DNA of 64,000 bases from an uncultured Spirochaetota bacterium (lineage in GTDB: Bacteria > Spirochaetota > Spirochaetia > SZUA-6 > Fen-1364), in contig CAWAHW010000001.1 in the NCBI GenBank assembly GCA_963781885.1, positions 128,001 through 192,000 of the forward strand. Reading direction: 5' to 3'. The notes under the pieces are model-generated. The model had not been told where the DNA came from and did no database searches. It saw only the letters and a list, made by a program, of their open reading frames with translations. Below are positions 7,626-58,250 of the stretch, piece by piece (the first letter of the stretch is position 1; every line of letters starts with the position of its first letter). The position numbers and the translations under genes were made by a program.

Positions 7626-8381
7626 ATGCAGGAATATGGAAAGACTTTTGCGGGCGTTTACGACAAGCTGTGGACAGGTTTTGTCCTCAACCTTGCCCCG
7701 GTTCTTCACGCGTTCTATGAGTCCGCCCCCGGGAGCAAAAGGCGAAGGTTGCTCGATGTCTGCTGCGGAACGGGGCAGCTCCTCCTTCATTTCCTCGAGC
7801 ATGGATTCACGGGCACGGGCATCGATCTCTCCGCAGACATGCTGGAGCACGCGGGGCGGAACTGCGCCCGCTATGCCGCCGAGGGAAAGGTCGACTTCAC
7901 GCGCGCCGACGCGGCTGCCTTCGAGGTCCGGGGCTCCTATGATTTTGCGGTGTCGACATATGACGCCCTCAATCACCTCCCGAGCCTTCCCGCGCTCTGG
8001 TCCTGTTTCGCCTGCGTCCATCGGGCGCTCGACCCCGGCGCCCCGTTCATCTTCGACCTGAACACGGAGAAGGGTCTCCAGCGTTGGAACGGCGTCCGGG
8101 TGGAAAACGGCGAGCAGGTCATGCTCGTCAACCGGGGCATCTATACGCGGGGCATGGAGAGGGCCTACACGAAGATCACGGGTTTCGTACGGACCGCGGC
8201 GGACAGCTGGACGCGCTTCGAGGAGACCGCCTACAACACGATCTTCCCCATGGCGCAGGTGGAGGAAGGCCTTCTGAAAACCGGTTTTCAGAGGGTCTCT
8301 TTTGCCTCCTCGCGAAACCTGGCCGAGGCGGTGTCCGATCCCGAAGAGCTGGACCGGGCATTCATCGTCGCGCGGGCTTGA
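7626..8381 (+). CDS. Class I SAM-dependent methyltransferase
   Basis: LLDVCCGTG, GIDLSADML, YDALNHL, LDPGAPFIFD. Confidence 0.88.
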   Translation: MQEYGKTFAGVYDKLWTGFVLNLAPVLHAFYESAPGSKRRRLLDVCCGTGQLLLHFLEHGFTGTGIDLSADMLEHAGRNCARYAAEGKVDFTRADAAAFEVRGSYDFAVSTYDALNHLPSLPALWSCFACVHRALDPGAPFIFDLNTEKGLQRWNGVRVENGEQVMLVNRGIYTRGMERAYTKITGFVRTAADSWTRFEETAYNTIFPMAQVEEGLLKTGFQRVSFASSRNLAEAVSDPEELDRAFIVARA

Positions 8382-40529: not shown

Positions 40530-42284
40530 TCACGCCACCGGGGACCGGCCCAGGCGTCTGAGCGTCCGCACGACGCACGAATCCGCCTCATCGCCTGCGG
40601 GATGTTCGGCGAGAGTCCGATACAGCTCGATGCACGCCTGCTCGTAGCCGATCCCCGCCAGCGCCGCGATGATGCGGGTCGCCCTGTCCACGAGCTTCTT
40701 GTTCGTCGCGTTGACCTGGATCATCCAGTTTCCCCAGATCCGCCCGAGCCTTCCCATGGTGCCGGTGGACACCGTGTTGAAGATGAGCTTCACGGCCAGA
40801 TGGGAGAAAAGGTTCATCGATGTGCGCGGAAGTCCGATCGGGATGCGGATGGCGGGCAATCCTTCACGCCCGCGCGCGCCCTCCGCGGCGTCGATGGCGA
40901 GGACGGTCTTGCGCGGATAGCCGCCCGCTTCCCGCGCCAGATACCCCTCCACGCCCGCCGAAGGCGCGCCGCCGACCGTGACCGCGATCAGCGCGGAGAC
41001 GGGGGCTTCGCGGCGACTCGGATCCGGCTCGCTGCCGATGGCGTAGCGATAGATCTCCCCGACATCGAGCGCGGGCGGCTGCGCGATCATGCGCGCGGTC
41101 CCCTTCATGGCGATGTAGTCGTCACGCGTCCAGCTGATGCCGCGCGGCGCGCGGCGCAGCATGTGGTCCCACGCGTCGTGCGTGGCGCGCACGGGGTCCT
41201 TCACGAATGCCCAGGAGGGAGGCGATGAGACGTCATCCACGGTGCGGAAAGGCGGGACCATGAACGTGGGGGTGCGCTCCGTAGTGTCGGAGATGATGTC
41301 GAGCAGGTACTCGTCCGTGGCATAGGTGACGAGGCCGCGCGCTTTGTAGATGTCGGACTCGAGCTCCATCGCGGCGGCGATCCCGGCAAGGGCCGCTCCA
41401 GATGAAAGCCCGTCCACCAGACGATCGAAGCCGGCCGCATAGTCGAACGCGCCCGCCGGGCGCCGGTCCTCCGCGATGAGCGCGGCCGCCTGCTCGAGGG
41501 CCGCCCCGACCACGAGCATCTCGGAGCTCGTCGCCTGAAGGCGCGTGGAACCGGAAAGCGCCATGGGGCCCGTGAACAGATCGATCTTCACGATGCCCGG
41601 ACACTGGATCACCTCGCGCGACCGCTCGATGTGCGCGGCCAGCACGTCTGCCGGATTGTTGAAGACAAAGAAAACCGAGCAGCCGCGCTCATGGGCCTCC
41701 CACGCGGTGCCGATCACCGACGAGGTCTCCCCTCCCTCAGTGATGGCCACGAGGAGGTCGCCCCGCGAAAGACCGAGATCCCGGACCTGACGCCTTCCGA
41801 ACTCCTGGAAATCCTCGAAGTTCTCCACGGACCTGATGAGGGCGCGGTCTCCGCCGGTCATGATGCTGAAAGCCTGCGCTGCCAGGCGCCGACATTTCAC
41901 CGCCCCCGCGGGGTCCGTCCGTTCTGCGCGCAACGCCTCCTCCCCCCAGTACTCGCGCCACATCCGTTCGAGGATGATGGCGAGCCGGCCCGTTGCGCCG
42001 CATCCCGAGAAGCCGATCCTCTTTCCTTCGCGCGCGGCGCGCACGATTTCGCGGACGAGCGCCTCATAGGGGGCGCTTCTGAAGACCTCGGCCGCGCGCG
42101 GCGGAATGTCGCGGTCCACGGAAAGGAGCAGCGCGGCGCCCGCGGCGGCGTCCCGCTGCACGGTTGCGCTGAAGTCCTTTGTCCGGGGATGGGGGCCTTC
42201 GGTGGGAAGAATGCCGAGGTGGAACTGCGTCTCTTCCCGGATGAAGCGGCGCGCCTCGATGAGCGCCGCGTCCGCCCCGCTCAT
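40530..42284 (-). CDS. MurQ/glucokinase-regulatory-protein-like SIS-domain protein (584 aa)
   Basis: LPTEGPHP, SGCGATGRL, GPMALSGSTRLQA, KLIFNTVSTGTM..GNWMIQV..TNKKLVDRA. Confidence 0.8.
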   Translation of the reverse strand: MSGADAALIEARRFIREETQFHLGILPTEGPHPRTKDFSATVQRDAAAGAALLLSVDRDIPPRAAEVFRSAPYEALVREIVRAAREGKRIGFSGCGATGRLAIILERMWREYWGEEALRAERTDPAGAVKCRRLAAQAFSIMTGGDRALIRSVENFEDFQEFGRRQVRDLGLSRGDLLVAITEGGETSSVIGTAWEAHERGCSVFFVFNNPADVLAAHIERSREVIQCPGIVKIDLFTGPMALSGSTRLQATSSEMLVVGAALEQAAALIAEDRRPAGAFDYAAGFDRLVDGLSSGAALAGIAAAMELESDIYKARGLVTYATDEYLLDIISDTTERTPTFMVPPFRTVDDVSSPPSWAFVKDPVRATHDAWDHMLRRAPRGISWTRDDYIAMKGTARMIAQPPALDVGEIYRYAIGSEPDPSRREAPVSALIAVTVGGAPSAGVEGYLAREAGGYPRKTVLAIDAAEGARGREGLPAIRIPIGLPRTSMNLFSHLAVKLIFNTVSTGTMGRLGRIWGNWMIQVNATNKKLVDRATRIIAALAGIGYEQACIELYRTLAEHPAGDEADSCVVRTLRRLGRSPVA

Positions 42285-43531
42285 GCACGGCCCCCGTCCT
42301 GCGCAGCCTCGATCTCCTCGAAGAATCGGATGCAGGTGAGGAGCGCGCGCGGAATGTGGAAGCAACCCTTCCACTTCCCCCCCTTCTGCGTTGTCGACGG
42401 GTCCCCTTCCCGGTGGAGGTAGCCGAACCACTCGCCGTCGGCAGGGTCGTCGAAGCGCGCCCAGACGTAGTCGTCCACGCGGCGGAACCATTCCCAGAAT
42501 ACGGCGCGGCCGGTGATCTTGTAGGCGAGCAGGAACGCGCAGAGCGCTTCCGCGTGGACCCACCAGAGCTTCATGTCCCATTCGAGCTTTTCCGGCGGTC
42601 GGCCGTCCGCATCGAGATAGTAGAAAAGCCCTCCGAACGCCGCATCCCAGCCGCGCTCCGCCGTCCACAGCATTGCCTCGGTGACAAGGTCGACGATCGC
42701 ACGACGATCGACGGACCGGGAATCACGCTCATCGATGGGCCACGATTCCACCGCGCGCAGGACGAACCAGAGAACCTCCAGCGCGTGCCCGGGGGTGAGG
42801 AGCCGGCCCTCCATGCAGTCGGGGTGGCTGCCATCGGCGTACACGCGCTCGTAGACCGCGCGGCGCTCCCGGTCGATATGCAGCCTTGTCACCTGGTCTA
42901 TCGCTTCGCGCAGGTAACCTTCGCGCACGGCCGGCTCCACAAGATCGCCCATCTCCTGGGCAAGCCACACCTGGATCATGGGAAATGCCATGGCCATGAT
43001 CGGACGGTGGGCGGCGATCTGCTTCGTGAATCGCCCCTTGGGATTGGCTTTCCGTTCCTGGATGCGCCGATAGGTCGCCGCCGCGATCTCCCGGGCCTCC
43101 TCGTCTCCCGCCGCACGCGAGTATTCGGCCATGCCCGCCGCGGCGAAGCAGTCGGAGAAGATGTTGTACGCCTCCACCAGGGGCCGACCCGTGCGGTCCA
43201 ACGCGAAGTACCAGTCGCCCTCGGTGTTGCGGCCGTGCGCCTTCATGAACTCCACGCCCGCGCGCGCGTACTCCCGCCACGACGGCTCCGCGCGGTAGCC
43301 GGTGAAAAGCTTGGAAAACATCCAGACCCCGCGCCCCTGCAGCCACATGAACTTGTCCGTGTCGAAGATCGCTCCATCGCGCTCGAGGCAGCAGAAATAG
43401 CCTCCGTGCGCGCGATCGACCGAATGTCGCAGCCAGAACGGGAGAATGCTCTCCTCCAGGGAGCGGCGGTAGCGCTCTTTCAGGCGCGCCACCTCCGCGC
43501 GCATCGTCAATCGATCGAGGGAATCGTGCAT
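42281..43531 (-). CDS. N-acylglucosamine 2-epimerase (AGE family)
   Basis: LPFWLRHS, DTDKFMWLQGR, PGHALE, KLWWVHAE, KGGKWKGCFHIPR. Confidence 0.92.
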   Translation of the reverse strand: MHDSLDRLTMRAEVARLKERYRRSLEESILPFWLRHSVDRAHGGYFCCLERDGAIFDTDKFMWLQGRGVWMFSKLFTGYRAEPSWREYARAGVEFMKAHGRNTEGDWYFALDRTGRPLVEAYNIFSDCFAAAGMAEYSRAAGDEEAREIAAATYRRIQERKANPKGRFTKQIAAHRPIMAMAFPMIQVWLAQEMGDLVEPAVREGYLREAIDQVTRLHIDRERRAVYERVYADGSHPDCMEGRLLTPGHALEVLWFVLRAVESWPIDERDSRSVDRRAIVDLVTEAMLWTAERGWDAAFGGLFYYLDADGRPPEKLEWDMKLWWVHAEALCAFLLAYKITGRAVFWEWFRRVDDYVWARFDDPADGEWFGYLHREGDPSTTQKGGKWKGCFHIPRALLTCIRFFEEIEAAQDGGRA

Positions 43532-46632: not shown

Positions 46633-46736
46633 GGCTTCCTCCTGAGGCTTCCAGAGTGGCGTCGCCCTCCGAAGATGTCAAGTTGGACCGCCTCCGCCTC
46701 CTTCACGCGACGCGCGTTCTTCCGTATAGTGCCCCT

Positions 46737-47932
46737 GTGTCCTCCTCGGAAGAGCCCGATTCATTCATAATCGAAGGTGGCGAGGTCGTTCTCCCCGATC
46801 GCGTGATCAGGAACGGGGTCCTTCTTGCAAAGGGCGCAAAGATCCTCCACGCCGGACTGGCGCAGAAGCTGCCCCTTCCCCTTCCCGCCGGCTGTCGGCG
46901 CATCGATGCGCAGGGGGCGATCGTGTGTCCGGCGCTTTGGGAGCAGCACATACACGGCTGCGGCGGGATCAGCACGGAGGGGATGAGCCCCCGGTCGCTG
47001 AAAGAGATGGCGCGCTTTCTCGCCCGGCGCGGCGTCGGCGCCTTCCTTCCCACAACCGTCCCGCTCGAGGAATCCCTCTCGCTGTTGGGGGAGGCGATGG
47101 AGGCCACGGCGGGCGATCCCGACATCGCCGGGAGGATCCCGGCATCTCCGTGGAGGGTCCATTCGTCGCCCCGTCGCGTCGCGGGGCCATACCGGAAGGC
47201 CTCCTGCGGCAGCCGTCGCCCGCCTACCTTCAGCGTATGATCGCCCTTTGCCGGGGACACATGAAAATGCTCACCTTTGCACCCGAGCTGCCGAACGCGC
47301 GGGCGCTGCTGGACCCGCTCCGTGCTTCCGGCATCATCCCCTTCCTCGGGCATTCGGGAGCCGCGTTCACCGATCTGGCGGGCTACGAATCCATTTCCCC
47401 CCTGGGCGTCACGCATCTGTGGAACGGAATGAGCGGCGTGTCCCACAAGGAGCCGGGGCTCGCGCTCTGGGCCCTGCTGGACCGTCACGCCTTCACGGAG
47501 ATCAACTGCGACGGCACGCACGTCGACGATGCCGCGGTACAGCTCGTGCTTCGCACCCGTCCCGGGGAGAAGCTCATCGTCATCTCCGACGCCATAGCGC
47601 CGGCGGGCCTGGCGCCGGGCGGCGCGCCGTCCTTCCTGTATGGCAGGCGCCTGGTCGAGAAGGGCAGCGGCCTGTACGACGAAGACTCCGGTACGCTTGT
47701 CGGGTCGCGATCCCTGGTCCCGGACTGCCTCGTGCGGCTGGTGCACGATCTGAACGTGCCGCTTGCATCCGCGGTGAGCATGGCAACCTTGAATCCTGCC
47801 CGTCTCCTGGGCTACCCCTGCAAGGGCGCCTTGCTTCCCGGCTACGATGCCGACGTGGCCATCCTGAGCCGGGATTTCGCCCATTGCTCCTTCATGAGCT
47901 GGGAGGGGAGGCCTCTCTTCGAAGAGCCGTAG
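46737..47932 (+). CDS. nagA: N-acetylglucosamine-6-phosphate deacetylase, frameshift near 47140
   Basis: QHIHGCGG, FLPT, EGPF, TFAPE, GHS, THLWNGM, DGTHV, ISDA, NPA. Confidence 0.88.
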
Positions 47933-47935
47933 TGG

Positions 47936-49336
47936 TTACGGGACCGCCCGGTAGGTGCCGTCCGTCAGGTTGATGTCGATATTGTTGTCCGCGTGCGGCG
48001 GCTCGCCCTTCCACATCCCCTCGATCACGTCCTTCTTCATCGCGATCGCAAGCGATCCCATGAGGCTCAGGTTCTTCGTGGGATACATCTGCGTGCCCGT
48101 GAAATGCGCGTCCCCGGCGTAGTGCGCGAGCCCCGCCTCGGTGAGAGGCTCGGCGATGGTGTCCGCCTCCGCGCGGGAGATGCCGTAGCCCATGAGCACG
48201 CTTTCGATGTACGGGAACATTCCCTTGCGCGAATAGTCGCGCGCAAAGGCGGGGAAGCCCTCCGGCATCTCGGGAAGCGATTCAATGTGGAAGCTGCGCA
48301 CCTGCATGAGCTGGTCGGCGCCGATCTGCACGAGCCGGTACGGGCAGGGATAGGTGACGAGCGACCCGGTCTCGATGTCGTAGAGGAAACGGGGGCTCGG
48401 GGGCTCGCTCTTCGCGTCGCGGGCATCCCACCACGCACCGGCGATGTTCTGGGCGTGGAAGTGACCGGTGAAGACCGCGCGCACGCCGTCGTCCGCGAGC
48501 ATCAGGGAAAACGCGTCGTTGTCCTGCACGACGTACGCCGCGAACTGCTTCTTCTGCCCCGGGAAATGCTCCACCACCCCGTGGTGCATCATCACGATGA
48601 CGGCCTTGTTCTCCGCGCGGGCCCGCGCGAGGATCTCCTTCGCCCAGGCGAGCCTCTCCGGGGTGAACGATCCAGCGGTATGCTCGTGCTTCTCCTTTGC
48701 GCTGAGGTCGTAGCGGCAGGCATCCAGCGCCAGAAGCCACAGCCCGGGCGCGGGTTCCACGACGTAGGCAAGGGAGTTGGGGTCGCGCGCGATCGCCGCG
48801 TCGTAGCCGAAGTCGCGGTAGATCTCGGCAAAGCGCGCGGGGGTCACGTTGGGAATGCGGGAGGTCGTGTCCCCGTCGTACCGCACGGACTCGGGGTTGT
48901 TCACGTCGTGATTGCCCGGGATCACGAAGACGGGGATGCCGGCGGCCTTTATCCTTTCCAGCGCCGCGGCAACCGCGAGATGGACAGCCTCTTCCCCGTC
49001 CTTGCTGAGATCCCCGGGGACGAGCACGAAATGGGGCTTCGCCTCGATGATCTTGTCGATCACCGTATTCAGCAGGCTCACGCTGTGCTCGAAAATCTTC
49101 CTGTCGTCGAACTTGATCTTCTCAAAGGCGGGCTGCCCGATGCCCAGCTCGGGCAGGAAGATGTGCGGGTCGGAGAAGACGGCGAAGCTCGTCTCGGGAT
49201 AGGCGGGGAAAGGGCCTGTCGCTTTCTCCGCGCGGAAGCTCATGCTCGAGCATCCGGCGATAAGGAGCACTGCGAGTATCGCGAGGATCGCGGCGCGCAG
49301 CGCGATTGCGTGACGTCTGGTTGTCGCTGTCTTCAT
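47936..49336 (-). CDS. Calcineurin-like metallophosphoesterase lipoprotein
   Basis: LIAGC lipobox; SDPH, PGDL, PGNHD, MMHH, TGHFH. Confidence 0.88.
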   Translation of the reverse strand: MKTATTRRHAIALRAAILAILAVLLIAGCSSMSFRAEKATGPFPAYPETSFAVFSDPHIFLPELGIGQPAFEKIKFDDRKIFEHSVSLLNTVIDKIIEAKPHFVLVPGDLSKDGEEAVHLAVAAALERIKAAGIPVFVIPGNHDVNNPESVRYDGDTTSRIPNVTPARFAEIYRDFGYDAAIARDPNSLAYVVEPAPGLWLLALDACRYDLSAKEKHEHTAGSFTPERLAWAKEILARARAENKAVIVMMHHGVVEHFPGQKKQFAAYVVQDNDAFSLMLADDGVRAVFTGHFHAQNIAGAWWDARDAKSEPPSPRFLYDIETGSLVTYPCPYRLVQIGADQLMQVRSFHIESLPEMPEGFPAFARDYSRKGMFPYIESVLMGYGISRAEADTIAEPLTEAGLAHYAGDAHFTGTQMYPTKNLSLMGSLAIAMKKDVIEGMWKGEPPHADNNIDINLTDGTYRAVP

Positions 49337-49478
49337 GGGCTTTCCTTTTTCCAGGATGCGCCGAGAGTAGCAGGATGTACGTGATCGCGCAACAGCGCTG
49401 CGCGGACCCCGGCAGTTCTCCTTTTGGGCCTTAGCATGAAAACTTCTTGACATTTGGGAATCCATCGCCTAATAATCG

Positions 49479-49502
49479 TTATTGTAAGACAATCTTACAA
49501 TT
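49479..49502. promoter_or_regulatory. Operator 1 (GntR/FadR-type) upstream of the GntR-ARH gene
   Basis: TTATTGTAAGACAATCTTACAATT, containing the palindrome ATTGTAAGA-CAA-TCTTACAAT; TTGACA at 49447. Confidence 0.75.
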
Positions 49503-49563
49503 CATGAAGTGCCGTCCAAAGTTTCATGGGCTCTAGTGGCGGGTATGATCGAGGGGTGGAGTC

Positions 49564-51195
49564 ATGAAACCTGTTACACGAAAAACCCTGGCATCTCTCA
49601 TCGCGGAGCAGATCAGGGCCGAAATCGTCCGGGGGAATCTCAAGGCTGCTCAACGCCTTCCCAGCGAGGCGGAGCTGAGCGCGGAGTTCAATGTCGGCCG
49701 GCCCACACTGCGGGAGGCCCTTCGCATCCTCGAGGGCCAGGGATGGGTCCAGATCAAATTCTCCACCGGTGTTTTCGTTTCCGATCCCGAGAATCTCGCG
49801 GACCGCATGTCCTCGTACTACGGCAAGGAAGGAATACGGGACCTCCTGGATTCCGAGCTCGCCCAGCTCCAGCACGAGGGCAGGGAGGTGCCTGCCTCCG
49901 CCAGAACCGATCTTCTCCACCTGCAGGAGGACGGAAAGCTGCGGGAGATCGAAGAGCTGGTGGAGAAACTGCAGAAGCTCCCGGCATCGTCCAGCTTCTC
50001 CTACGTGGAGCCGACGACGCTCGCCGACATACGATCCGCCCGACAGGCCGCCGCGGAAGCGCCGGACAAGCGTGACAGGGTGGCCGATCTGAGGGATCGC
50101 ATCCACGGCGGCCTGCTGGGCCGCTGCATCGGCAGCCTCCTTGGCACGCCGGTCAATGGGTGGACCGCGAACGCCATCGAGCAGTATCTGCGCGCGATCG
50201 ATCGCTACCCCCTGACGGGTCTCATGCCCTACGCCCCGAACGAGGTGGCGCGCGGCCAGTATTCATTCCTCGGAGCCGAAGCGCAGTCCGCGCCCGTGCC
50301 CCCGCGGGGCCTCCTGCGCGGGGTCGAGCCGGAGTTCGCCATCCTCAACGACACGATCATCAGCCTCAAGGTGATGCAGCTCCACGGGTGGGATTTTTCT
50401 TCCGAGGACGTCGGCGAGGAGTGGCTTTCTTCCCTTCCCTACCGGACGACGCTCACCGCGGAAAGACAGGCGTACGGAAACCTCGTGCGGGGCCTCTCCC
50501 CGCCGGCCACCGCCACGATCCTCAATCCCTTCCGCGAATGGATCGGCGGCACCGTGCGCGCCGACCTCTACGGCTACGTCTGCCCGGGCGACCCTGCGCT
50601 GGCGGCGATGCTTGCCTTCCGCGACGCAACCGTTTCCCATACGAAGAACGGCGTCTACGGCGCCATGTTCGTGGCCGCTGCCATCGCCGCGGCGTTTGTC
50701 GCACAAAGCGCGGAGGAGATCGTCACGGCGGGCATGGGCCAGATCCCGCAGCGCTCCCGGTTGTGGGAGCTTCTGTCCCAGGTCGTGCAGTGGTGGAAGG
50801 ACGGAACGGAGTGGCAGGTTTCCGTGGCGCGCATCGAGGAGCGCTGCGCGGACTACCGGCGGCCGCACGTGCTGCCCAACGCGGCAAGAATCGCCGTCGG
50901 CGTCCTGCACGGGGGCCTGGACGTCCGCGCGACGATCTGCACGACCGTCATGTGCGGGAACGACCCGGACTGCAATGCCGGCGCTGCGGGCTCCATCATC
51001 GGCGTGCACGCGGGCGCCCGCGGCATTCCCGACGATTTCCGGCACGCCGTCGGTGACCGGCTCCCGAGCGCCGTGCTCGGCTTTCACGAGACGAAAATCA
51101 GCCTGGTGGCGGAAATGGCGGAAAAGATCGCGGCCTCCCGTCCGGGCGAGGGACGCGAGACGGTCAAGCCGGCGCGCGATGCGAAACGGATCTGA
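49564..51195 (+). CDS. GntR (FadR-like) HTH fused to an ADP-ribosylglycohydrolase-fold domain
   Basis: RLPSEAELSAEFNVGRPTLREALRILE HTH; LLGRCIGSLLG, TAERQAY, NPFREWIGG..RAD, SHTKNGVYG, GNDPDCNAG..GS. Confidence 0.85.
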   Translation: MKPVTRKTLASLIAEQIRAEIVRGNLKAAQRLPSEAELSAEFNVGRPTLREALRILEGQGWVQIKFSTGVFVSDPENLADRMSSYYGKEGIRDLLDSELAQLQHEGREVPASARTDLLHLQEDGKLREIEELVEKLQKLPASSSFSYVEPTTLADIRSARQAAAEAPDKRDRVADLRDRIHGGLLGRCIGSLLGTPVNGWTANAIEQYLRAIDRYPLTGLMPYAPNEVARGQYSFLGAEAQSAPVPPRGLLRGVEPEFAILNDTIISLKVMQLHGWDFSSEDVGEEWLSSLPYRTTLTAERQAYGNLVRGLSPPATATILNPFREWIGGTVRADLYGYVCPGDPALAAMLAFRDATVSHTKNGVYGAMFVAAAIAAAFVAQSAEEIVTAGMGQIPQRSRLWELLSQVVQWWKDGTEWQVSVARIEERCADYRRPHVLPNAARIAVGVLHGGLDVRATICTTVMCGNDPDCNAGAAGSIIGVHAGARGIPDDFRHAVGDRLPSAVLGFHETKISLVAEMAEKIAASRPGEGRETVKPARDAKRI

Positions 51196-51254
51196 AGCAA
51201 TGGAATGCACATCATCGGTGCGGGGATGAACCCCGCCGGAAGAAGGAGGAAGAG

Positions 51255-52541
51255 ATGTCCGAAACAGTGAATGTCCGGGGCAGACAGGACAGGGGGGCTC
51301 CCCAGATCCTGCCTGCCCGTGCGCAATCCGACCTGATCACGGAGCTGGTGAGAAACCGACTCGATACGGTTCTTCCCGTTGCCATGAAGGAGGCGGGGCT
51401 CGACATGTGGATCATCCTCAGCCAGGAGGACGACCTGGACCCCCTCTACAAGACGATGGTTCCGATGGACTGCTGGAACCCGATCCTCCAGATGCTCGTC
51501 TTCGTCGACGAGGGCAACGGAAAGATCAGCCGGTACAGCATCTCGGGGACCGATACGAAGGACCTCTACGAGCGTCCCTACATCGGACAGCTGGAGGAGA
51601 AGCAGTGGCCGGTGCTCCTCGACCTGGTAAACAAGCGGGACCCGAAGACCATCGGGGTGAATATCGGATCGGTGGCATGGGCGGCCGGCGGGCTCACGCA
51701 CTTCCTCTACAAGCAGCTTGAGGAAAAGCTCCCACAGAAGTACGCGAAACGCCTGGTCTCCGCGGAGAAAGCCGCCGTGCGCTGGGGTGCCTGCCTCACG
51801 GATCGGGAGATCGATCTTTTCCGGCACGTCGTGGAGATCGCCCACGGCATCATCGCCGACAGCTTCAGCCGGATGACGATCACCCCCGGGGTGACCACCG
51901 TGGACGACCTGGTGTGGTTCTACTGGCAGCGCTCCATCGATCTGGGCCTCGAGCTCTCCTTCCGGCCCTATTTCCGTCTCATTCGAAGCGACGCCGCCAT
52001 CCAGCTCCATGGCGCCAATGACAAGGTCATCAGGCCCGGGGACGCCATTCACAGCGACGTGGGCATCAAGTACCTTCGGATGAACTCGGACAACCAGCAC
52101 ATCGCTTACGTTCCCCGGAGGGGCGAGACGGATGCCCCTGCCGGGCTCAAGGCGCTCATGGCGCAGACCAACAGGCTGCAAGACATCTTCATGAGCGAGT
52201 TCAAGGTGGGCATCTCGGGCAATCAGCTTCTGCAGAACATCCTGAATCGGGCTCGGCGCGAAGGGATCGGCATGCCCCGGGTCTACTCCCACTCACTCGG
52301 GCTCTTCCTCCACCAGCCGGGACCCCTCATCGGCCTGCCGTGGGAACAGGAGAAGCCCCTGGCCCGTGGCGAGGTCCTGATGCAGCACAACTATGCATTC
52401 ACCATGGAGTTGAGCACGGATGGGCCGGTGCCGGAGTGGAACGGCCAGACCGTCAGATGCCCCATGGAGGAGCCGGTCGTGTTCACAAAGGAAGGCTGCA
52501 TGACGTTGAAGGGTCGGCAGACCGAGTTCTACTTGATATGA
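51255..52541 (+). CDS. M24 family (Xaa-Pro aminopeptidase-like) metallopeptidase, cytoplasmic
   Basis: Metal ligands in SDVG, NSDNQH, YSHSLG, MELS, MEEP; AAGGAGG RBS; no signal peptide. Confidence 0.82.
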   Translation: MSETVNVRGRQDRGAPQILPARAQSDLITELVRNRLDTVLPVAMKEAGLDMWIILSQEDDLDPLYKTMVPMDCWNPILQMLVFVDEGNGKISRYSISGTDTKDLYERPYIGQLEEKQWPVLLDLVNKRDPKTIGVNIGSVAWAAGGLTHFLYKQLEEKLPQKYAKRLVSAEKAAVRWGACLTDREIDLFRHVVEIAHGIIADSFSRMTITPGVTTVDDLVWFYWQRSIDLGLELSFRPYFRLIRSDAAIQLHGANDKVIRPGDAIHSDVGIKYLRMNSDNQHIAYVPRRGETDAPAGLKALMAQTNRLQDIFMSEFKVGISGNQLLQNILNRARREGIGMPRVYSHSLGLFLHQPGPLIGLPWEQEKPLARGEVLMQHNYAFTMELSTDGPVPEWNGQTVRCPMEEPVVFTKEGCMTLKGRQTEFYLI

Positions 52542-52571
52542 GCTTTTGCTTGACATCCGCCATTGGGCATG

Positions 52572-52601
52572 ATTGTATTATTGTCAGACAATAATACAAT
52601 T
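52572..52601. promoter_or_regulatory. Operator 2: perfect 14-bp inverted repeat upstream of oppA
   Basis: ATTGTATTATTGTC-A-GACAATAATACAAT; TTGACA at 52550. Confidence 0.8.
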
Positions 52602-52649
52602 TAGAAAACAACCCACGGACGTGGGAAAGCAAGGAAAAGGAGGAGTAGC

Positions 52650-54290
52650 ATGAAAGATTTCAAGACCAGATGGGCACGCATTGCGGTTTTCGCGATCGTG
52701 TTCATGGTGGGCGCGAGTGCCGTATTCGCGGCTGCGCAGAAGATTCTGTATCTGCCCGCCGACGCGGAGTTCGACAATCTCGACCCGCGGGTGTTGACGT
52801 CCACCATCCAGCAGCTCGTGCAGTTCGGCATTTTCGAGCCGCTCGTGCGCACGCACGACGGTCAGCTCCTGCCCGGCATGGCGAAGACCTGGGAGGAGTC
52901 CAAGGATGGAATGACCTATACCTTCCATCTCCGGGATGCCAAGTGGTCCGATGGAAAAGCGGTGACGGGCGGCGACTTTGTGCACGCGTTCGTGCGCATG
53001 TTCCAGATCTGCCCGGCAAGTCCCATCTATGACGACATCAAGAACGGAGCGGAGCTGCGCGCGGGCAAGGTGCAGCCGGCCGACCTCGGCGTGAAGGCGC
53101 CGGACGACAAGACGGTGGTCATCACCCTGAAGAACCCCGCTCCCTACTTCATGGGCCTCATCGCGAGCTCCTTCGGCGCGCCGGGCCGTGAAGACCTCGT
53201 CGCCAAGTACGGCGATGCCTACGGCGCGAGCGTCGACTCGCTGGCCAGCAATGGCCCCTTCATCCTCAAGGAATGGAAGAAGGACGACAAGATCGTGATG
53301 GTGAAAAACCCCAACTACTGGAACGCGGGAGCCATCAAGCTGGACCAGGTCGTCGTCTACGTCCTTCCCACCCCCCAGACCCAGCGGAATCTCTTTGACA
53401 GCGGGCAGCTCGACATGTATCTCCCCCGCGCCGAATCCGAGGCCAAGGATTACCAGGCAAAGGGCCTCCTGAGCTTCTTCGTACGCGGCGGGATCCGCGA
53501 CCTGCAGATCAACCGGCACGGCCAGAATGACCCCGTGAAGGCGAAGATCCTGAGCAATGTGAACTTCATGAAGGCCATCTCCTACGCCATCGACCGGCAG
53601 GGCTACGTGGACAACGTTCTCCAGGGAGCCGGCTACCCGGCCACCGTGCAGACGCCCCCCGGGACCGGCGTCTACCCCGGAAAGACCTGGGGCCAGGTGA
53701 GCACGAATATCGGCAAGTACCATCCCGTGAAGGCGGACCTGGCGAAGTCCAAGGCATACATGGATCTCGTGCTGAAGGACAACGGGTTCACCTCGGTGGA
53801 CCAGCTCCCGACGTTCGACTTCCTGACCTCGATCGGGCCCGACGATCCCAAGGACGTCACCGGTTACCTGCTGGGCGTCTTCAAGCAGATGGGCCTGAAG
53901 ATCAACGTGAAGCTCGCGACGGGCCAGCAGTTCTACAACAACCTGTACAAGCCCGCCCTCGCCTGGGACATGTGCCGCGCGGGGTGGGGCCCTGACTTCG
54001 ACGACCCGGCGACGTACATGGGCTACTGGGTCACCGCGTCCACCGACATGGGCGTGACCTATGAGAATGCCCAGTTCGATACTCTGTTTGCAAAGGCCAA
54101 CATGGAAACCGACCTCGTGAAGAGGGCTGTAATCCTCAACCAGGCCGAGGCCTTGTTCTCCGACAATGCGCCGTGCATCCCCATTACGTGGTATAAGGGT
54201 GAGATCGCGCTGTCGGCGCGCGTGAAGGGCTTCACGACCGCCATCACCGGACTGACGACGGACTATATCTTCGCGGACGTCACCAAGTAA
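52650..54290 (+). CDS. oppA: Oligopeptide ABC substrate-binding protein (family 5)
   Basis: Signal peptide; YTFHLRDAKWSDG, SNGPF, KNPNYW, GWGPDF; AGGAGG RBS. Confidence 0.9.
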   Translation: MKDFKTRWARIAVFAIVFMVGASAVFAAAQKILYLPADAEFDNLDPRVLTSTIQQLVQFGIFEPLVRTHDGQLLPGMAKTWEESKDGMTYTFHLRDAKWSDGKAVTGGDFVHAFVRMFQICPASPIYDDIKNGAELRAGKVQPADLGVKAPDDKTVVITLKNPAPYFMGLIASSFGAPGREDLVAKYGDAYGASVDSLASNGPFILKEWKKDDKIVMVKNPNYWNAGAIKLDQVVVYVLPTPQTQRNLFDSGQLDMYLPRAESEAKDYQAKGLLSFFVRGGIRDLQINRHGQNDPVKAKILSNVNFMKAISYAIDRQGYVDNVLQGAGYPATVQTPPGTGVYPGKTWGQVSTNIGKYHPVKADLAKSKAYMDLVLKDNGFTSVDQLPTFDFLTSIGPDDPKDVTGYLLGVFKQMGLKINVKLATGQQFYNNLYKPALAWDMCRAGWGPDFDDPATYMGYWVTASTDMGVTYENAQFDTLFAKANMETDLVKRAVILNQAEALFSDNAPCIPITWYKGEIALSARVKGFTTAITGLTTDYIFADVTK

Positions 54291-54409: not shown

Positions 54410-55330
54410 ATGGCACGCTATATTCTGAATCGCGTCCTTGTCGCGATTCTCACGATGTTTGTCCTGGCGACGACCACCTTCTTCCTCATGCGGCTGGTGC
54501 CCGGCGACCCCATGGCCGGGCCCAAGGTGACACCGGAGGTGAAGGCGATCCTCCGCAAGCACTACGGGCTGGACAAGCCCCTGATGGAGCAATACGTCAT
54601 CTACATGGGCAATCTCCTGCGGGGGGACTTCGGCTGGTCCATGGCCAAGCGCGGCAATCGCGTGAACGACATCATCCGTGACGCCTTTCCCGCCTCCCTG
54701 GACCTCGGCGTCCGGTCGATGATCGTCGCCATCATCATGGGCCTCTTTTTCGGGATCGTCGCGGCCCTCCACCGGGGAAAGCCCATGGACTACCTCACGG
54801 TGATCCTCGTCCTGGTCGGCATCTCCGTGCCCAGCTTCGTCGTTGCCGGCCTGCTCCAGTATTTCTTCGGCGTCTACCTCCACGTCCTGCCCGTGGCCCG
54901 CTACGACAACTGGAAGGCGACGCTCATGCCGACATTCGCCCTGAGCCTCGGCACGATGGCCACCCTTGCCCGCTACATGCGCGCGAGCATGCTGGAGATC
55001 GTCAACGCCGACTACATCAAGACGGCAAAGGCCAAGGGATTGAGTCGTCTGCAGATCGTCATGCGCCACCAGGTGCGCAACGCCCTGTTCCCGATCCTCA
55101 CCATCCTGGGTCCCGCCATCGCCATGGTGCTCACGGGGTCCTTCATCATCGAGACGGTCTTCGCCATCCCCGGCCTGGGCCGGCACTACGTGAACGCGAT
55201 GCAGAATCTCGACTACACCCTCATGCTGGGCCTCACGCTGTTCTTCGGTTTCTTCCTGATCGCGATGAATCTCCTGGTGGACTTCGCCTACGGGCTGATC
55301 GATCCCCGGGTCCGGCACACGCGGGGATGA
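54410..55330 (+). CDS. oppB: Oligopeptide ABC permease
   Basis: PGDP, YGLDKP, DYIKTAKAKGL, IDPRVR. Confidence 0.92.
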   Translation: MARYILNRVLVAILTMFVLATTTFFLMRLVPGDPMAGPKVTPEVKAILRKHYGLDKPLMEQYVIYMGNLLRGDFGWSMAKRGNRVNDIIRDAFPASLDLGVRSMIVAIIMGLFFGIVAALHRGKPMDYLTVILVLVGISVPSFVVAGLLQYFFGVYLHVLPVARYDNWKATLMPTFALSLGTMATLARYMRASMLEIVNADYIKTAKAKGLSRLQIVMRHQVRNALFPILTILGPAIAMVLTGSFIIETVFAIPGLGRHYVNAMQNLDYTLMLGLTLFFGFFLIAMNLLVDFAYGLIDPRVRHTRG

Positions 55331-55340
55331 GGAGCGTGCC

Positions 55341-56258
55341 ATGAGCGAGCTGCCGCGGGAGATGTTCACACCGCTCGATCGGGCGGAAAAGGCCGGGCTG
55401 AAGACGGAAACCGAGACGATCGCGTTCTGGAGCGACGTCTGGCGCCGGTTCCGCAGGAACAAGGCGGGCATGGCGGGAGTGGTGATCGTCCTCCTCTTCG
55501 TGATCCTCGCGATCGTCGGCCCGTCGCTCGTGCCCTTCAAGTTCGACCAGATCGACCTGACGTCCACCTACGTCCTTCCCGGACGCGCGCACTGGTTCGG
55601 CACCGACCTCCTGGGCAGGGACATCTGGGCCGAGCTCTGGGTGGGCGCCCGCGTCTCGCTCCTGATCGGCGTCGTCTCCGCGCTGAGCCAGATGGTCATC
55701 GGCACGATCATCGGCTCCCTCTCCGGCATCTATGGCGGCAAGGTCGACATGATCATCATGCGCGCCGTGGACATCCTGATCGCGGTCCCCTTCCTGATCT
55801 GGGTGAGCCTCTTCATGCTCGTGCTGAAGCCGGGCATACAGTCCATCATCCTCGCCTTCTCCATCACCGAATGGAAAGGCATGGCGCGCCTCGTGCGTGG
55901 CGAGGTCCTGCGCCTGAAAGAGACGGAATACGTCCTGGCAAGCAAGGGCATGGGGGCTTCCACCTGGCGCCTGATCACGAAGCATTTCTTTCCCAATCTC
56001 CTCCCCGTGGTCACCGTCTCCGTGACATTCCAGGTCACCGCCGCGATATTCGGCGAGGCGTTTCTGAGCTACATCGGCCTGGGCATCCAGCCGCCGCTCA
56101 CCTCATGGGGGGTCCTGATCGCGTCAGGGATCAACGAGATGCGCTCCTACACCTACATGCTCTTCATACCGGCGGTCTTCATCAGCCTCACGATGCTGTC
56201 GCTGCAGCTCATTGGCGACAGCCTTCGCGACGCCACCGACCCGAAGCTCCGGCAGTAA
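55341..56258 (+). CDS. oppC: Oligopeptide ABC permease
   Basis: HWFGTDLLGRD, EYVLASKGMGA, GDSLRDATDP. Confidence 0.92.
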   Translation: MSELPREMFTPLDRAEKAGLKTETETIAFWSDVWRRFRRNKAGMAGVVIVLLFVILAIVGPSLVPFKFDQIDLTSTYVLPGRAHWFGTDLLGRDIWAELWVGARVSLLIGVVSALSQMVIGTIIGSLSGIYGGKVDMIIMRAVDILIAVPFLIWVSLFMLVLKPGIQSIILAFSITEWKGMARLVRGEVLRLKETEYVLASKGMGASTWRLITKHFFPNLLPVVTVSVTFQVTAAIFGEAFLSYIGLGIQPPLTSWGVLIASGINEMRSYTYMLFIPAVFISLTMLSLQLIGDSLRDATDPKLRQ

Positions 56259-56271
56259 GGGGCGCGCGAAG

Positions 56272-57297
56272 ATGCCACAGGAAAAGCTTCTCGAAGTGCA
56301 GAATCTCACGATCTCCTTCCACACGTTCGCCGGCGACGTCTCGGCCGTGCGCAACGTGGACTTCGACCTGCGCCCGGGCGAGGTGATCGCCATCGTGGGG
56401 GAGTCGGGGAGCGGCAAGAGCGTCTCCACGCAGGCGATACTCGGGCTCACGCCGATTCCCCCCGGCGAGATCAAGAGCGGCAAAATCCTTTTCAAAGGGG
56501 AGAACCTGCTCACCTGCAGTGCCAGACGCCTGAGCGAGGTGAGCGGCGCGCAGATTTCGATGATCTTCCAGGACCCGATGACCTCGTTGAATCCCACGAT
56601 GAAGGTGGGAAACCAGATCCGGGAAATCCTCCACCAGCACGCGCGGCTCACCCGGGCGGAAAGCGCGGAGCGGGCCATGGAGCTCATGAATCTCGTCGGT
56701 ATCCCCGAGCCCCGGGTGCGCCTGGGCCAGTATCCCCACGAGTTCTCGGGCGGCATGCGCCAGCGCGCCATGATCGCCATGGCAATGGCCAATCGCCCCG
56801 AGATCCTCATTGCCGACGAGCCGACGACGGCGCTCGACGTCACCATCCAGTCGCAGATACTCCGGCTGCTGCGCGAGCTGCAGCGCGACTTTCACACGGC
56901 CATCATCCTCATCACCCACGACCTCGGCGTGGTTGCGGGCATGGCGGACCGCATCGTGGTCATGTACGCGGGCAGGGTCATGGAGGAAGGCACGACCGAC
57001 CAAGTCTACTATCGCCCCCACCATCCCTATACGGCCGGTCTGCTCCAGGCCGTTCCGAGCCTCGCGGATGACGAGCGGAAAAAGCTGCGCACCATCGAGG
57101 GCACGCCGCCCTTCCTTCTCCATGTTCCCCCCGGGTGCCCCTTTGCCGAGCGTTGCGACTATTCGATGCGCATCTGCAAGGAAAAGGAGCCGCCGTACCA
57201 CCATCCCGAGGCCGGCAACCGGGTCTTCTGCTGGCTCTACGACGAGGGTGCATCGGATCAGCGCGCGCGATTCGCGGCAAGGGAAGTGGCGCAATGA
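56272..57297 (+). CDS. oppD: Oligopeptide ABC ATPase
   Basis: GESGSGKS, FQDPMTSLNP, FSGGMRQR, HPYT, GCPFAERC. Confidence 0.93.
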   Translation: MPQEKLLEVQNLTISFHTFAGDVSAVRNVDFDLRPGEVIAIVGESGSGKSVSTQAILGLTPIPPGEIKSGKILFKGENLLTCSARRLSEVSGAQISMIFQDPMTSLNPTMKVGNQIREILHQHARLTRAESAERAMELMNLVGIPEPRVRLGQYPHEFSGGMRQRAMIAMAMANRPEILIADEPTTALDVTIQSQILRLLRELQRDFHTAIILITHDLGVVAGMADRIVVMYAGRVMEEGTTDQVYYRPHHPYTAGLLQAVPSLADDERKKLRTIEGTPPFLLHVPPGCPFAERCDYSMRICKEKEPPYHHPEAGNRVFCWLYDEGASDQRARFAAREVAQ

Positions 57298-58250
57298 CGG
57301 CAAAGATCCTGGAGCTTCATCATCTCCAGAAGCATTTCACCCTGAGCAGGGGACGGGTGCTGAAGGCCGTGGAGAACATCGACCTTGACATCTACGAAGG
57401 GGAGACCTTCGGGCTGGTCGGAGAGTCGGGCTGCGGAAAGTCCACGCTGGGAAGGACCATCAAAGGCATCTACGAGCCCACGGCCGGCCAGATCCTTTAT
57501 AACGGAAAGGATACCGCTCACATGGACGGCCAGGAGCGCAAGCTCTACCGCCGTGATTTACAGATCATCTTCCAGGACCCCTACTCATCGCTCAACCCCC
57601 GCATGACGGTGAAGGAGCTGATCGCCGAGGGGCTGGAGATACACGGTCTGGGCACGAAGGAAGAGCAGAAAGAAAGGGTCTTCGAGACGCTGAAGCTCGT
57701 GGGGCTCAGCCCCGAGTACGTGACGCGCTTCGCGCACGAGTTTTCCGGCGGCCAGAGACAGAGGCTTGCCATCGCGCGCGCGCTTGCCGTGAGGCCGCGC
57801 TTCATCGTCTGCGATGAGCCCATCTCCGCGCTGGACGTCTCCATCCAGGGGCAAATCGTGAACCTCATGAAGGACCTGCAGCGAGAGCTCGGCCTCACGT
57901 ACCTCTTCATTGCCCATGACCTGTCCATGGTGAAGTACATCAGCGACCGCGTCGGGGTGATGTACCTGGGAAGACTGGTGGAGGTCGCCGACAAGGCGGA
58001 GCTTTTCGCCAATCCGCAGCATCCCTATACGCAGGCTCTGCTGTCTTCCATCCCGATCCCCAATCCGAACATCGAGCGGCAGCGGAAGGAGATCCCCATC
58101 GAGGGGGAGATCCCCAGCCCCCTTGAAAAAATCGACGGCTGCAGCTTCAAGACGCGCTGCCCTTTCGCAGTGGCAAAATGCGACACCATGGCCTACGAGC
58201 TTCGGGACATCGGCAACCAGCACGTCGTGATGTGCACGAAGTTCCAGTAG
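57294..58250 (+). CDS. oppF: Oligopeptide ABC ATPase
   Basis: ATGA overlap; GESGCGKST, FSGGQRQR, DEPISALD, HPYT. Confidence 0.93.
   Translation: MTAKILELHHLQKHFTLSRGRVLKAVENIDLDIYEGETFGLVGESGCGKSTLGRTIKGIYEPTAGQILYNGKDTAHMDGQERKLYRRDLQIIFQDPYSSLNPRMTVKELIAEGLEIHGLGTKEEQKERVFETLKLVGLSPEYVTRFAHEFSGGQRQRLAIARALAVRPRFIVCDEPISALDVSIQGQIVNLMKDLQRELGLTYLFIAHDLSMVKYISDRVGVMYLGRLVEVADKAELFANPQHPYTQALLSSIPIPNPNIERQRKEIPIEGEIPSPLEKIDGCSFKTRCPFAVAKCDTMAYELRDIGNQHVVMCTKFQ

Follow-up and report, generated by a model that had tools for sequence, protein, structure and literature searches.

GntR regulators are classified by their C-terminal domain, and six subfamilies (FadR, HutC, MocR, YtrA, AraR, and PlmA) are described in the available part of PMC4494728. 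The gene considered here encodes a GntR winged helix joined in one protein to an ADP-ribosylglycohydrolase (ARH) fold, a C-terminal domain that is none of these six types. It lies in a 64,000-nucleotide (nt) stretch of DNA, hereafter the window, of an uncultured Spirochaetota bacterium (assembly GCA_963781885.1, contig CAWAHW010000001.1, positions 128,001 to 192,000 of the forward strand). Since the family is classified by effector domain and the ARH fold stands outside the six, proteins of this kind would make up a seventh GntR type. The regulator is quite probably a homodimeric local repressor that senses its ligand through a pseudoenzyme ARH fold without hydrolysing it.

The principle of an enzyme fold acting as an effector domain is already known from MocR and NrtR, and an inactive protein of the ARH fold is known as well (ARH2). 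NrtR, the effector of which is ADP-ribose, differs from the present regulator in that its effector domain has the Nudix fold and is N-terminal, its winged helix is C-terminal, and it regulates NAD metabolism. What the two have in common is local regulation through an effector domain whose fold is annotated for ADP-ribose processing (PMC2330246, available part). MocR, GabR, and PdxR resemble the regulator in combining a GntR winged helix with a large enzyme fold for effector binding and dimerisation. They differ in that this is the fold of pyridoxal phosphate aminotransferases and that their operators are often direct repeats, in contrast to the GT..AC palindrome found here (PMC4494728).

ARH2 (ADPRHL1) has the ARH fold with changed SDDT and DSDS-type motifs and, in the accessible part of PMC9738213, no detectable activity; unlike the regulator, it is a vertebrate protein with a role in muscle and carries no DNA-binding domain. 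DraG, ARH1, ARH3, and MJ1187 share the fold, and their first and last motifs are alignable, but they are stand-alone proteins of ~300-360 amino acids (aa) with the full set Glu + [ST]DD[ST] + DxD[ST]. Set against these short ARHs, the window protein is without the first two motifs, is extended by 90 aa at its N-terminus, and carries Cys in place of the final Ser/Thr. GgaR (YegW) of the E. coli yegTUV locus is a GntR single-target repressor that is tied to the ARH-family gene yegU and senses ADP-glucose. It differs from the protein described here in that regulator and ARH protein are separate genes and sensing occurs via its own C-terminal domain (PMC10819704, available part).

Other fusions of a long-type ARH to GntR, LacI, or XRE domains share the ARH domain with the regulator, and the GntR-fused ones also share the operator core ATTGT-N3-ACAAT. 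These fusions differ in having kept the catalytic Glu and DDD (they are called intact below), and databases name them only 'ADP-ribosylglycohydrolase family protein'. No fusion of an HTH (helix-turn-helix) domain to an ARH was described in a full-text literature search covering mostly journals outside subscription; automatic database names already show both domains. In the literature searched, this would be the first transcription-factor sensor role found for the ARH fold.

The fused gene and its catalytic motifs

The gene and its parts are as follows.

49564..51195 (+): GntR-ARH regulator gene, 543 aa; a single uninterrupted open reading frame (ORF) with an ATG start
49597..49779 (+): GntR winged HTH, residues 12-72; PF00392, 1.8e-18, 66.4 bits against a cut-off of 27
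49789..50106 (+): helical stretch that extends the long-type ARH at its N-terminus, residues 76-181
50107..51033 (+): ARH fold, residues 182-490; PF03747 (ADP_ribosyl_GH), 3.5e-38, 132.3 bits against a cut-off of 26.2
50155..50157 (+): Asn198 at the family's catalytic Glu position (GKPVEGW changed to GTPVNGW), from the homologue alignment and a structure-profile search
50320..50355 (+): residues 253-264, GVEPEFAILNDT, in place of DDD-x-D-Y-T; DDD is lost and five residues are inserted
50962..50973 (+): D467-P-D469-C470, a retained DxD[ST]-type motif (the metal-B site in ARH3)

The initial annotation, made from the sequence, described a single ORF fusing a GntR HTH to an ARH domain that takes the place of the usual FCD or UTRA domain. 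Both statements proved correct. Pfam recognises the two domains, which occur together in 64 of the 120 listed homologue clusters, and its scan of the 543-aa protein detects neither FCD nor UTRA, PF03747 being the sole C-terminal family. The best NCBIfam matches span the HTH only and are far under the cut-offs. By sequence alignment, the solved HTHs closest to the winged helix are those of NanR and PdhR. Residues 76-181, with helices predicted in the model at 88-137, are an extension of the ARH and not a mere linker, because stand-alone long-type ARHs (~440 aa) align to the regulator from residue ~90 onward.

The homologue set comprises the best 120 clusters of 292 with E <= 0.001 among 8000 scored candidates; besides the 64 clusters with PF00392 and PF03747, it contains 5 LacI-ARH fusions, 4 XRE-ARH fusions, and 47 clusters with ARH alone. 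The GntR-ARH fusion is real. Full-length fused orthologues are present in two other genomes (86% and 75% identity) among the 25 genomes of the same family that were searched, and two further ones are found on metagenome contigs. The metagenome scan yielded only two extra loci of the window's clade, both on short contigs. The junction, a check of which had been proposed, shows no indel or stop: public-run (Logan) contigs, which are assemblies and not raw reads, possibly come from the window's own sample, and leave some gene parts uncovered, match 49482-50078 with 0 differences and 0 gaps. One of them (49624-49937) crosses the junction, and the others span 49482-49808 and 49782-50078.

The motifs quoted in the initial annotation are all found in the regulator, namely GTPVN (N198), RGVEPEFAILNDT (252-264), and GNDPDCN (465-471). 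A profile search of solved structures with the ARH part of the regulator and 42 stand-alone relatives aligned the family's GKPVEGW with GATVEF of DraG and GMPTEN of MJ1187, and its DTDCNGA with DADTTGA of DraG. Both Glu and DDD are present in 107 of the 120 listed homologues (NDD in two of the 107). The other 13, which are at least 50% identical to the regulator and constitute the window's clade, have N, T, or Q for Glu, no DDD, and 5 extra residues. The claims that GTPVN replaces G(K)PVE and that the acidic DDD is lost are thus borne out, with Asn198 at the aligned Glu position and DDD in 0/13 of the clade. Where 107 relatives have DDD, the window protein has G253-V254-E255 plus the insertion, and positions 253-255 are free to vary inside the clade.

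The claim that the C-terminal DxD (GNDPDCN) is kept also stood, D467-P-D469 being aligned with DAD in the DADT of DraG. DxD[C/S] is retained in every listed homologue with a complete C-terminus. D467 and D469 are invariant and C470 is at least 90% conserved across 61 fused sequences, and all three residues occur in 12/12 clade members. The final Cys470, as in 94% of long-type relatives, stands in contrast to Ser/Thr of the ARH3-type motif. Alignment with ARHs and homologues reveals that the catalytic acidic residues are not all intact.

The extent of the change was evaluated over 92 columns at least 90% conserved in 104 non-clade sequences, which were scored in 12 clade members. As many as 71 are kept in at least 10 of the 12, 4 are partly kept, and 17 are lost (183, 184, 191, 195, 198, 220, 253-255, 263, 330, 331, 391, 443, 473, 474, and 519). 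The lost columns take in the first motif (183-198), the DDD motif (253-255, 263), and two residues after DxDCN. Judged from the aligned sequences, the loss of catalytic residues is real and clade-specific, and it points to a loss of hydrolase activity in the window protein.

In ARH3, Thr76, Asp77, Asp78, and Asp316 bind metal A, and the residues that bind metal B are Asp314, Asp316, and Thr317; the D77A replacement abolishes MgA and all activity and tightens ADP-ribose binding, whereas D314A abolishes MgB and weakens binding 44-fold (PMC8141533, available part). The residues of active ARHs are listed in the accessible part of PMC9738213 as Glu41, Thr76-Asp77-Asp78, and Asp314-x-Asp316-Thr317 in ARH3, and Glu25, SDD, and DSDS in ARH1. 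The family's DDD seems to correspond to the metal-A [ST]DD[ST] motif of ARHs, 76-TDDT-79 in ARH3, as suggested by motif order and invariance. Neither a 130-aa piece of the intact relative P0014 nor a 53-sequence profile of the middle region matched any ARH chain, and with the full-domain profile, alignment to solved ARHs was confined to the first and last motifs. A protein that binds without cleaving would be expected, because Glu and DDD are lost while D467-x-D469-C470 and most conserved residues are kept.

Operators and the genes they may control

Two promoter regions at the locus carry palindromes.

49447..49476 (+): sigma-70-like promoter of the regulator (TTGACA, 18 nt, AATAAT), 11/12 matches in the promoter scan
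49481..49501 (no strand): operator O1, perfect 21-bp palindrome ATTGTAAGAcaaTCTTACAAT, 4 nt after the promoter
52550..52555 (+): TTGACA, -35-like box of the ABC-operon promoter, invariant in the 3-genome alignment
52572..52600 (no strand): operator O2, perfect 29-bp palindrome, 16 nt after TTGACA and 50 nt before the binding-protein gene

O1 is built from the core 13-mer ATTGTAAGACAAT (49481-49493) and an additional ACAAT 8 bp beyond it; in O2, the core 13-mer ATTGTCAGACAAT (52580-52592) has ATTGT and ACAAT on either side at 8 bp. GntR operators follow the consensus NyGTNxACNy, and additional half-sites are reported for them at distances of 7-12 nt (PMC4494728, available part); ATTGT-N3-ACAAT with its spaced pentamers fits this consensus. 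O1 is identical in the orthologous loci L001, L093 (genome G019), L098, and L099, and O2 is conserved in L001 and L093. When the two intergenic regions are aligned across the 3 genomes, the sole long invariant blocks are the palindromes and the TTGACA boxes, including that of the regulator's promoter; all 21 columns of O1 are invariant while the flanks diverge.

ATTGT-N11-ACAAT occurs 3 times in the window versus 0.02 expected, at places that are orthologous in L001 and G019. The 13-mer ATTGT-N3-ACAAT is found exactly twice in the 4.64-Mb genome, both times at this locus (a reversed control pattern occurs once), and the looser N11 form has one additional genome site outside the locus. The conserved operator would thus define a two-promoter regulon confined to one locus. 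Repression rather than activation is suggested, because the operators sit over or just after the -10.

The same 13-mer is present before intact GntR-ARH genes, where it immediately follows a TTGACA/TATAAT promoter and precedes the start codon by 10-28 nt. Among 10 intact (clade-A) loci with at least 98 nt upstream, 7 have the exact 13-mer, 2 have one mismatch, and 1 is ambiguous. These figures come from a direct pattern search, and a palindrome scan of the clade-A upstream regions was mostly blank.

The genes downstream of the regulator are listed below.

51255..52541 (+): M24-family metallopeptidase-like gene; PF00557, 7.4e-10; protein-atlas clusters named M24 family metallopeptidase
52650..54290 (+): family-5 solute-binding protein (OppA/DppE/MppA-like); PF00496, 1.9e-70
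54410-55330 and 55341-56258 (+): two ABC permease genes, assigned by translations and operon position, without Pfam
56212-57297 and 57135-58250 (+, ORF bounds): two ABC ATPase genes, the second with ABC_tran and oligo_HPY

The M24-like gene starts 59 nt past the regulator, is syntenic in L001, L093, and L098, and is probably co-transcribed with it. Its product has no solved relative by sequence and belongs to no NCBIfam family at E 1e-5; the NCBIfam match to methionyl aminopeptidase scores 17.4 bits with a cut-off of 171, and the atlas names are generic. The nearest solved chains of the binding protein are OppA, DppE, and a murein-peptide binder, and its NCBIfam OppA match is under the cut-off. 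The true starts of the ABC ATPase genes are probably later than the ORF bounds. The order regulator, M24-like gene, ABC importer is kept in L001 and G019. Intact GntR-ARH genes precede CUT1-type sugar ABC transporters in 3/3 loci read (L004, L005, and L006), where no peptide-type transporter was seen; L004 also has a GH78 rhamnosidase gene. The genome that harbours the window has no other PF03747 genes.

Proposed ligand sensing and alternative explanations

The proposed mechanism can be outlined as follows. The winged helix would bind ATTGT-N3-ACAAT with the extra pentamers 8 bp away, both at O1, directly after the -10 of the regulator's own promoter, which probably also drives the M24-like gene, and at O2, which overlies the promoter for the Opp-type ABC importer further downstream. 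The long-type ARH fold would act as the effector-binding and dimerisation domain and may bind, without cleaving, a small ribosyl- or glycosyl-type ligand tied to the imported substrate. Binding of the ligand would then release the operator. We infer both ligand binding and the class of the ligand.

The AlphaFold2 model of the regulator (61-sequence alignment) has a mean pLDDT (predicted local distance difference test) of 80.2 and a pTM (predicted template modelling score) of 0.80. The top Foldseek matches are MJ1187, ARH3, a Thermus ARH-related protein, and DraG, with E of ~1e-6 to 1e-5 and a probability of 1.00. As a separate observation, the highest query-normalised TM-scores (0.44-0.45) among the Foldseek rows shown belong to PDB 8xks_Q and 8xqw_G. 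These chains represent the ARH-like subunit in the Ycf2/Orf2971-FtsHi motor complex from Chlamydomonas, a subunit that at 495 aa is similar in length to long-type ARHs.

The regulator is predicted to homodimerise. A homodimer model of residues 76-543 gave an interface score (ipSAE) of 0.65, with 0.02 as the highest value among 3 controls; at least 40% of contacts recur between runs, and the pLDDT of the partner does not fall below 79. In the model the interface is symmetric and is made up of residues 253, 285, 288-295, 304-305, 307-309, and 503-509.

A FastTree phylogeny of the ARH columns was built from 116 rows; the fragments P0013, P0062, P0071, and P0087 were left out, and P0005, an N-terminally shorter call, was counted in the window's clade (P0001-P0013). 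All GntR-fused sequences form one clade (support 99), in which 6 ARH-only calls nest, and the LacI and XRE fusions are placed elsewhere in the tree. Fusion of the same long-type ARH domain to DNA-binding domains of the GntR, LacI, and XRE families thus took place independently. The window's clade is recovered as monophyletic (support 100), with a long stem of 0.53; since the tree tool warns of long-branch effects, the nesting of this degenerate clade needs a careful tree. The full set of Glu and DDD is intact in 51 of the 64 GntR fusions and 9 of the 9 LacI/XRE fusions, and inactivation therefore looks like a later step in one clade. As far as this distribution of motifs can tell, recruitment as a regulator domain predated the loss of catalytic residues, and inactivation is not what made the fold a sensor.

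Selection was estimated from three orthologue pairs. The ratio of nonsynonymous to synonymous substitution rates (dN/dS) lies at 0.10-0.16 in the ARH and 0.06-0.11 in the HTH; the least constrained part of the gene is the N-terminal extension, with 0.09-0.37. In view of the 0.10-0.16, the degenerate ARH domain is under purifying selection, maintained and not decaying.

The initial annotation had suggested an enzyme fold repurposed as a ligand sensor. This suggestion is supported, a sensor role being in keeping with the GntR, LacI, and XRE fusions, the purifying selection, the 71/92 retained columns, and the operators. Sensing does not depend on inactivation, since the catalytic set is present in the majority of HTH-ARH fusions.

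Several points weigh against the picture of a non-hydrolysing sensor that represses both promoters. The model is poor around the site, with pLDDT <50 at 239-254, 294-297, and 306-322. The support for the dimer is a model score, and its calibration, in which 20 of 30 proteins with structures solved as pairs attained the mark, as did 1 of 23 with single-chain structures, gives only rough counts with a custom alignment. The equation of DDD with metal A is unaligned to solved ARHs and rests on motif order and invariance. The acidic residues E255, E257, and D263 remain near the site, D263 being present in 9/12 clade members. The intact fusions, which make up most of the HTH-ARH fusions, may function in another way. 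Some of the clade-A loci with the shared operator are closely related to one another and not independent. Finally, repression of the ABC promoter is deduced from position alone, because the promoter scan called no -10 there.

One alternative is that the ARH has remained a hydrolase that relies on different acidic residues (E255, E257, and D263) or on a single metal, so that the protein is a trigger enzyme that both degrades its substrate and regulates. The three residues do lie in or beside the former DDD stretch, the DxDC motif and 71/92 conserved columns are retained, and the full catalytic set in 51/64 GntR and 9/9 LacI/XRE fusions means that enzyme-regulators may be the ancestral state. 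However, N, T, or Q occupies the Glu position in 12/12 clade members. No replacement acidic set is conserved either, since position 255 is E, D, A, H, or G, position 257 is E, Q, A, G, or S in the sequences shown, and position 263 is D, H, or F. In addition, replacing Asp77 of ARH3 with Ala alone abolishes activity (PMC8141533, available part), and ARH2 with its altered motifs shows no activity in the accessible part of PMC9738213. We consider this explanation improbable.

It is likewise unlikely that the ARH is a scaffold only, i.e., a dimerisation module with no small-molecule ligand in a regulator that is constitutive or controlled by a partner or a modification. Such a role would agree with the homodimer model, the interface of which falls on family-conserved residues 288-309, and with the fact that no ligand can be named from gene context. 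On the other hand, the metal-B-type DxDC is kept in 11-12 of the 12 clade members together with other invariant residues outside the interface, among them NPFREW (321-326), SHTKNG (358-363), H435, and N439, none of which a pure scaffold would need, and the ARH dN/dS is 0.10-0.16. Moreover, the gene heads an uptake operon, which is typical of ligand-controlled local repressors. A mis-assembly or frameshift joining two genes has a negligible chance, for nothing was found in its favour except that the NagA-like gene of the window splits over two frames, so the assembly has indels, and against it stand the public contigs identical across 49482-50078, the fused orthologues in two genomes and two metagenome contigs, the 64 clusters with both domains, and the purifying selection seen on the HTH and the ARH among the orthologues.

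Returning to the ligand-sensing repressor, a wider and rather doubtful proposal may be put forward. HTH-ARH fusions could be a class of one-component regulators that read a metabolite by means of a ribosyl/glycosyl-hydrolase fold. Intact GntR, LacI, and XRE fusions would then act as trigger enzymes, binding the inducer and destroying it, and the window's clade would be a natural pseudoenzyme that mimics ARH3 D77A, with just the half of the binuclear site that serves binding left, and that may bind a sugar- or ribose-bearing peptide. The ligand could be a muropeptide or a ribosylated peptide imported by the controlled OppA/MppA-like transporter. If true, the ARH fold would here be connected with the salvage of peptidoglycan or peptides and not with protein ADP-ribosylation. 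Intact and degenerate sensors with one shared operator offer a natural comparison for the route from enzyme to receptor, and the family lets one ask which half of the binuclear metal site serves binding and which serves catalysis. A single-locus regulon with a unique operator may also provide an orthogonal switch once the ligand is known.

Ligand hints and neighbouring genes

The hints at salvage of muropeptides or amino sugars all come from NCBIfam matches under the cut-offs and should be taken as a lead only when it comes to naming the ligand. Upstream in the window there are NagA-like, MurQ-like, and N-acylglucosamine 2-epimerase genes. Glycoside hydrolase family 3 (GH3) and L-Ala-D/L-Glu-epimerase-like genes lie beside the G019 orthologue, and a GH3-like ORF follows the L099 orthologue.

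The context of stand-alone or otherwise fused long-type ARHs was surveyed at 27 loci with 107 neighbouring ORFs, two per side, using greedy ORF calls; 3 of the 30 chosen loci were dropped as no ARH ORF was called. No single conserved partner or deducible substrate appeared across the 27 loci. The neighbours included PfkB kinases (3), a second ARH paralogue (3), sugar-isomerase-like TIM barrels (2), GFO/IDH/MocA proteins (2), and glycoside hydrolases (4), and many archaeal loci turned out to be unrelated to carbohydrate use. A LacI-HTH and ARH fusion in an Anaerolineae metagenome-assembled genome (L060, 4939-6558, +) is located near a 591-aa ARH paralogue and SBP_bac_1 and GH94-like genes. Stand-alone long-type ARH genes are common in Bathyarchaeia, where at three loci (L011, L020, and L028) the ARH gene is followed by the same two genes, one of the amino-acid-kinase family and one with the metallo-beta-lactamase fold, with no adjoining carbohydrate genes.

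Some minor features of the window deserve mention.

46656-47932 (+): N-acetylglucosamine-6-phosphate deacetylase (NagA)-like gene in two frames, 46656-47240 covering positions 4-103 of the nagA profile and 46925-47932 covering 127-371
40530-42668 (-): 712-aa ORF with matches to models of N-acetylmuramic acid 6-phosphate etherase (MurQ) only at ~207-387 and 617-684, under the cut-offs
52612-52625 (-): hairpin CCCAC-loop-GTGGG with a 5-bp stem, in the binding-protein leader between O2 and the ribosome-binding site
47936-49465 (-): calcineurin-like metallophosphoesterase gene with a lipoprotein-type signal (LIAGC)

The frame of the NagA-like gene changes between ~47073 and 47141, beside a short C run, and may reflect either an indel of the assembly or a genuine frameshift. 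The 712-aa ORF may be an over-call in GC-rich DNA or may hide a frame break. The folding energy of the leader hairpin was no better than that of shuffles (z of -1.36, -0.46, and +0.91), and Rfam gave nothing above gathering scores in 49300-52800. Counterparts of the hairpin are found in L001 (~11012-11025) and L093 (~7836-7848), the stem being kept in the three genomes with a different loop. The metallophosphoesterase gene is divergent from the regulator and shares the intergenic region that contains O1. This neighbour is not conserved, and in G019 the upstream gene is a GH3 gene in the same orientation as the regulator.

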